From Escherichia coli (GTDB lineage Bacteria > Pseudomonadota > Gammaproteobacteria > Enterobacterales > Enterobacteriaceae), in NCBI RefSeq assembly GCF_044647545.1, contig NZ_CP172818.1: a DNA stretch of 64,000 bases. One strand, written 5' to 3'. The position numbers were made by a program, and so were the translations under genes. Below the pieces are notes generated by a model. It was not told where the DNA came from. It was given only the letters and a program-made list of their open reading frames with translations, and made no database searches. Positions 35,051-35,078 of this stretch are shown here, one piece after another. Position 1 is the stretch's first letter; every line of letters begins with the position of its first letter.

Positions 35051-35078
35051 AAAAAAAAAAAAAAAAAAAAAAAAAAAA
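35051..35078. repeat. Uninterrupted A28 homopolymer
   Basis: Counted directly in the sequence; atypical for E. coli. Confidence 0.95.

Follow-up and report, generated by a model that had tools for sequence, protein, structure and literature searches.

A 28-nt poly(A) run upstream of gltI in an Escherichia coli genome record is very probably a technical seam

Upstream of gltI the Escherichia coli contig NZ_CP172818.1 (assembly GCF_044647545.1) contains 28 consecutive adenines, which raises the question whether this run belongs to the DNA of the organism, where it might act on the gltI promoters, or to the way in which the record was made. The window analysed here is a stretch of 64,000 nt of this contig. 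The uninterrupted run (A28) is located at 35051-35078 on the plus strand and is flanked by a G at 35050 and a T at 35079. The gltI coding sequence (34045-34953, minus strand) is intact and identical to the reference, and A28 lies in its upstream region, 98-125 nt from the ATG at 34953, in agreement with the distance of about 100 bp given in a first-pass annotation of this DNA. The same annotation had placed the run where promoter elements would be expected, and this holds insofar as the site is regulatory DNA: gltIJKL is transcribed from sigma70 and sigma54 promoters, and the IS5 element upstream of gltI in K-12 blunts the induction upon nitrogen limitation (PMC9731577). In the window no sigma70-like hexamer pair was found in 34900-35450, and none spans A28. 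A terminator-like hairpin at 35022-35039 was disregarded, as it is made of corrupted bases.

The length of the run is far past chance, as the expected number of runs of at least 20 A was 0.00 in 100 dinucleotide-preserving shuffles. The window holds only two such runs, at 35051-35078 and at 45588-45636, and both are A on the plus (written) strand. In the homologous 67 kb of E. coli FDAARGOS_497 the longest homopolymer is 9 nt, and the same maximum was found in 70 kb of K-12. The earlier statement that A28 is far longer than homopolymers native to E. coli was therefore correct.

The window was searched against 5,426 complete E. coli genomes, 5423 of which matched, and rows were taken evenly down the ranking. 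FDAARGOS_497 (NZ_CP033850.1) is the top-ranked genome, with none above it. Within the homologous 67 kb of this strain, positions 1-35047 of the window are 99.98% identical, 37421-45468 are identical and 45651-64000 are 99.995% identical, corresponding to two SNPs in the left 35 kb and one indel in the right 18 kb. All other differences fall within 35021-37420 or 45469-45650, and outside these two blocks the identity is about 99.99%. At both SNPs (2048 and 11419) the window has the K-12 base. They are thus natural variants, in which the change appears to be private to FDAARGOS_497, and the core of the window is real lineage sequence. This core has an identity of only 97.8% to K-12, and these roughly 2.2% of differences, together with the near-identity to FDAARGOS_497, show the core to be real lineage-specific sequence of the ST648 type. 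By its sequence, the window belongs to the FDAARGOS_497/ST648 type of E. coli.

At the site of the run, FDAARGOS_497, E24377A, an O157:H7 strain, uk_P46212, SCU-118 and K-12 read ...GTGCAGTGTTGTG(C/T)(C/T)TGTTAGG... and have no A-run. The wider reading in these six lineages is ...TTGTGCAGTGTTGTG(C/T)(C/T)TGTTAGGTAAC..., and the ordinary sequence without the run is ...GTGTTGTGTTTGTTAGG..., also given as ...GTGCAGTGTTGTGTTTGTTAGG.... Reference-quality genomes thus carry ordinary sequence upstream of gltI at this point, the outcome that had been named beforehand as speaking against a native run. A28 is missing from the top-ranked genome as well, and in 37 of 37 sampled genomes spanning the site the record span is 29-30 nt shorter than in the window. 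Neither a tract nor a length polymorphism was detected at the orthologous site in the six lineages and the 37 sampled genomes. Therefore, A28 is extra sequence unique to the window and not an older tract that was lengthened. The exact sequence of the A28 junction was not found in the GTDB representative genomes.

The lead-in at 35021-35050 (plus strand) is scrambled, with single bases dropped at 35021, 35032 and 35038-39 and 'AGTGTTGTG' changed to 'GGTTGTGTTTTGG'. Besides the two natural SNPs, these changes are the sole differences from FDAARGOS_497 in window positions 1-35047. Directly after A28 the window is re-anchored, with a perfect match to FDAARGOS_497 over 289 nt (35079-35367, plus strand). 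It then enters a degraded block (35368-37156, plus strand) comprising the gene of a rhomboid-family protease and its flanks. This rhomboid-family intramembrane protease has 625 aa and is intact in 3231 genomes, whereas the longest ORF left in the window has 110 aa. Identity in bins of 50 alignment columns is about 57% near 35830 and rises over 78% to 98% at 36247-36400. This near-perfect island is followed by a second valley with about 50% near 37020, and from approximately 37150 the identity is back at 94-100%. Over 35079-36906 the identity to the reference is 81.7% with 66 gap openings. The rhomboid block contains artificial homopolymers (G11, A13, A12 and T10), and three ORFs that are specific to the corrupted sequence were not found in a public gene collection. 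The block is nevertheless colinear with the true allele (2065 nt versus 2084 nt).

The island at 36247-36400 (98%) does not mark a structural boundary of the pan-genome, and the identity climbs gradually on its left side. A reset at 36247 caused by such a boundary was ruled out, as genomes carry the segment in full (3231 of them) or not at all. The island may point to the use of separate reads or of anchors on its two sides.

The errors in the rhomboid block have a distinct spectrum. In the 1.8 kb adjacent to A28 there are 293 substitutions, 75% of which are equal to an adjacent base. The probability that a base equals the previous one is 0.40 in the block and 0.26 in the reference, and runs of five or more occur 50 times versus 10 times. 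C is the main loss, while A gains 6.7 points and T 0.7. Measured against the true template, the wrong base copies a true neighbour in 83% and 66% of the cases in two sub-blocks, where 48% is expected. The previous and the next true base are copied about equally, and this symmetry indicates a blur rather than a one-directional lag, so that a lagging process was ruled out. Over the three codon positions the substitutions are distributed 96/95/95.

To relate these differences to natural polymorphism, seven diverse natural alleles were aligned with the block. Columns that vary in nature show no excess of differences (OR 0.84, p = 0.28), and 468 of the 533 differences are at columns that are invariant in all seven. 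Of 480 substituted bases, no more than 31 are found in a natural allele. At 37 sites that discriminate between alleles the block has the ST648-type base 25 times, that of another allele six times and neither six times. Among the 5426 complete genomes the best match to the block reaches 76.6%; the best matches are the FDAARGOS_497 allele and include strains named ST648 and MS6198. A natural divergent rhomboid allele was therefore ruled out, since even the best match is this distant and the differences ignore both polymorphism and codon position. With two SNPs in 35 kb, a divergence of about 20% and dozens of frameshifts in one gene cannot have evolved. Mutagenesis by a diversity-generating retroelement (DGR), a mutator or slippage was likewise rejected, because indels and neighbour-copying substitutions are limited to 2.3 kb and the rest is near-identical. 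Poor sequencing of an AT-rich region was excluded as well, as the reference rhomboid block has a G+C content of about 50%. Judged by this spectrum, the errors in the rhomboid block are non-biological.

The second corrupted block has a similar architecture. Its lead-in (45469-45587, plus strand) resembles an accessory segment of the reference from which first the G's and then C and T are progressively omitted. It is followed at 45588-45650 (plus strand) by A49-T-A8 (45588-45645) and GAAGC, and the match is perfect again from 45651-45652, which makes this a seam like that at A28. The G content is 3.8% in 45469-45650 and 28.7% in the reference segment, and the 182 nt of the window stand for 425 nt of the reference. 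An exact test of 45469-45587 as a subsequence of the reference failed, and the description is therefore limited to a sequence that largely reads like the reference minus its G's. The replaced 425-nt segment is located between tRNA-Met and asnB, is part of a 145-aa hypothetical ORF in FDAARGOS_497 and is restricted to 986 of 5424 E. coli genomes. K-12-like genomes do not have it, and the edges of the second block coincide with the edges of the K-12 indel within 1-2 nt.

The first block can be related to K-12 in the same manner. The TTAG at 35083-35086 is the target of IS5D in K-12 MG1655 (record position 687851) and lies 5 nt beyond A28. K-12 does not have the rhomboid segment; its homology is confined to 35083-35228 and returns at about 37420-37430 near the lnt stop codon, where also the last window differences of the rhomboid region are found. 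Sequence that is extra with respect to K-12 occurs in the window at only two places, and both are the corrupted blocks. Corruption therefore appears tied to segments absent from K-12, a relation that rests on few cases, since the window has just two or three structural differences. IS5D in K-12 occupies the same spot as A28 and is a natural structural difference affecting gltI regulation; the window, in contrast, has neither IS5 sequence nor a duplicated target. For the present question IS5D is relevant in that the K-12-like backbone breaks where the quality of the record collapses.

Upstream of the K-12 IS5 point the motif TGCACC-N5-GGTGCT (35181-35197) presumably resembles the NtrC binding-site consensus. 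Such a candidate site at this position would fit the published blunting by IS5 of the gltI/SroC induction under nitrogen limitation. In the spacer by the lnt stop codon (37297-37420) seven small differences from FDAARGOS_497 were observed. As this spacer is naturally hypervariable (58-100% of the columns vary among alleles), part of these differences may reflect real variation rather than error.

Taken together, the tract is found in no relative, lies on the boundary between corrupted and perfect sequence, is accompanied by non-biological errors and has a twin run, which argues for an artefact. A28 is thus very probably a technical seam that arose in the production of the record, where segments absent from K-12 were probably filled at low resolution, and not DNA of the organism. 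The first-pass annotation had left the choice between an artefact and a slippage-prone tract; the former is strongly supported by a run that occurs in no relative examined and marks the transition from corrupted to perfect sequence, and the latter is not supported. The second, longer run, the scrambled 30 nt ahead of A28 and the heavy corruption of the 2 kb after it had escaped that annotation. Three features of an artefact at a joined segment are present: an independently determined, near-identical genome lacks the run; the agreement changes abruptly next to errors with a non-biological spectrum; and the pattern recurs at a second join.

According to this model, most of the window would come from an ST648-type E. 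coli and be well determined. Low-resolution sequence would begin where a K-12-like counterpart is lacking: between gltI and lnt, at the IS5 point and the rhomboid segment, and between tRNA-Met and asnB, at the 425-nt segment. In these parts neighbouring bases would blur, bases would drop out and positions with zero information would become A, until the correct sequence returns abruptly at the next anchored point. As the production route we infer a backbone-anchored or hybrid assembly, in which gaps may have been filled with single-pass, poorly resolved reads resembling Sanger tails or with a crude long-read consensus. The preference for A could stem from its place as the first symbol in nucleotide encodings or from its use as the call when there is no signal. 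Sequencing and assembly artefacts can default to A by no-signal calls, by decoding of N or empty columns, or by untrimmed low-quality read ends. With artefacts in which missing information is written as A, the window shares the position at seams, the blur-like errors, the second seam and the constant use of A on the written strand. It differs from them in an error style that varies somewhat between the blocks. Two observations speak against one simple process. The base that is lost differs from place to place, being A before A28, G in the second block and mainly C in the rhomboid block. In addition, the perfect stretch after A28 overruns the edge of K-12 homology at 35228 by 139 nt.

It is conceivable, though we regard it as unlikely, that a generative or imputing model made the sequence or filled its non-backbone parts. 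Such a model would reproduce familiar E. coli sequence, lose track in segments that vary in the pan-genome, collapse to low-complexity output and poly-A, and recover where familiar sequence returns. The coincidence of the corruption with pan-genome-variable segments would fit such an origin, the homopolymer drift and the collapse to A resemble degenerate autoregressive output, and the three ORFs unique to the corrupted sequence were not found in the public gene collection. However, the window reproduces the 2.2% of differences from K-12 at about 99.99% identity to one lineage over 60 kb, for which memory would hardly be enough. In addition, the degraded block follows the true allele over 2 kb with a length within 19 nt and the ST648-type base at 25 of 37 sites. 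The gradual recovery before 36247 and the equal copying of previous and next bases are also unlike a generator that proceeds from left to right. Two-sided valleys, symmetric blur and preserved colinearity are thus better explained by a poor-resolution reading of a true template than by free generation.

If A28 were instead a real recent expansion or insertion, it would be slippage-prone and could vary the spacing between activator and promoter at gltI, as proposed in the first-pass annotation under the term phase-variable promoter spacing. The run is in the record, after all, and the regulatory site tolerates large insertions, since IS5 5 nt away changes regulation in K-12. Tracts known to tune promoters are short, and their length varies from one relative to the next: in the nspA poly(A) tract of Neisseria meningitidis five versus six A tune the promoter (PMC6389960), and the tracts in the Bordetella fim promoters are short and polymorphic, too (PMC1891110). 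Like these contingency loci, A28 is a homopolymer upstream of a gene for a surface or transport function, and it would slip readily if real. However, their tracts are short, differ in length between relatives and typically lie in the promoter spacer, whereas A28 has no counterpart in relatives and lies 98-125 nt from the ATG with no promoter-like hexamers around it. As the relatives examined have no tract of any length, not even a short precursor, A28 fails as a contingency locus, and the phase-variation proposal could not be upheld, also in view of the damaged flanks. Besides the scrambled flanks, the A49 run, the 2 kb of non-biological noise in an otherwise near-identical genome and the lack of a sigma70-like promoter spanning A28 all stand against a real tract, which we therefore consider very improbable. 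On this very improbable reading a newly arisen 28-bp A/T tract would separate the upstream activator region from the promoters of gltI, and the nearby noise would be an unrelated sequencing problem, perhaps triggered by the tract. No longer homopolymer native to E. coli would then be known, and as a hyper-mutable spacer the tract could switch glutamate/aspartate uptake on and off. Poly-A tails mark retro-insertions in other systems, and A28 is close to the IS5D target of K-12, so that a scar of a mobile element, left by excision of IS5 at TTAG or by a retro-insertion with its poly-A tail, might be considered. At A28 neither IS5 ends nor a duplicated 4-bp target were found, TTAG being single, and neither an inserted body 5' of the A-run nor a target-site duplication was detected, as the extra sequence consists of the A-run and a few rewritten bases. 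A scar of either kind fails on these grounds. Lineages free of IS5 have plain sequence at the site, and the second A-run lies elsewhere, at a site with no relation to this one and within a corrupted block, which leaves this explanation with next to no probability.

With A28 as a technical seam, the value of the observation is in quality control, not in biology, and it serves as a warning for this record. Taken at face value, the record would point to phase variation at the gltI promoter, to decay of the rhomboid protease gene, which annotation would wrongly call a pseudogene, and to a lost small accessory ORF by asnB, and all three would be false. Giant A-runs on boundaries between corrupted and perfect sequence provide a simple marker with which the rest of the record can be screened, and segments that are absent from the K-12-like backbone are the places where more corruption is to be expected.

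A single-base indel was observed at 47665, where FDAARGOS_497 has A5 and the window A4. It lies within 47644-47673, the only other 30-nt piece of the window to which K-12 has no homology (about 170 nt stand there in K-12), and may represent either natural variation or the same corruption on a small scale.
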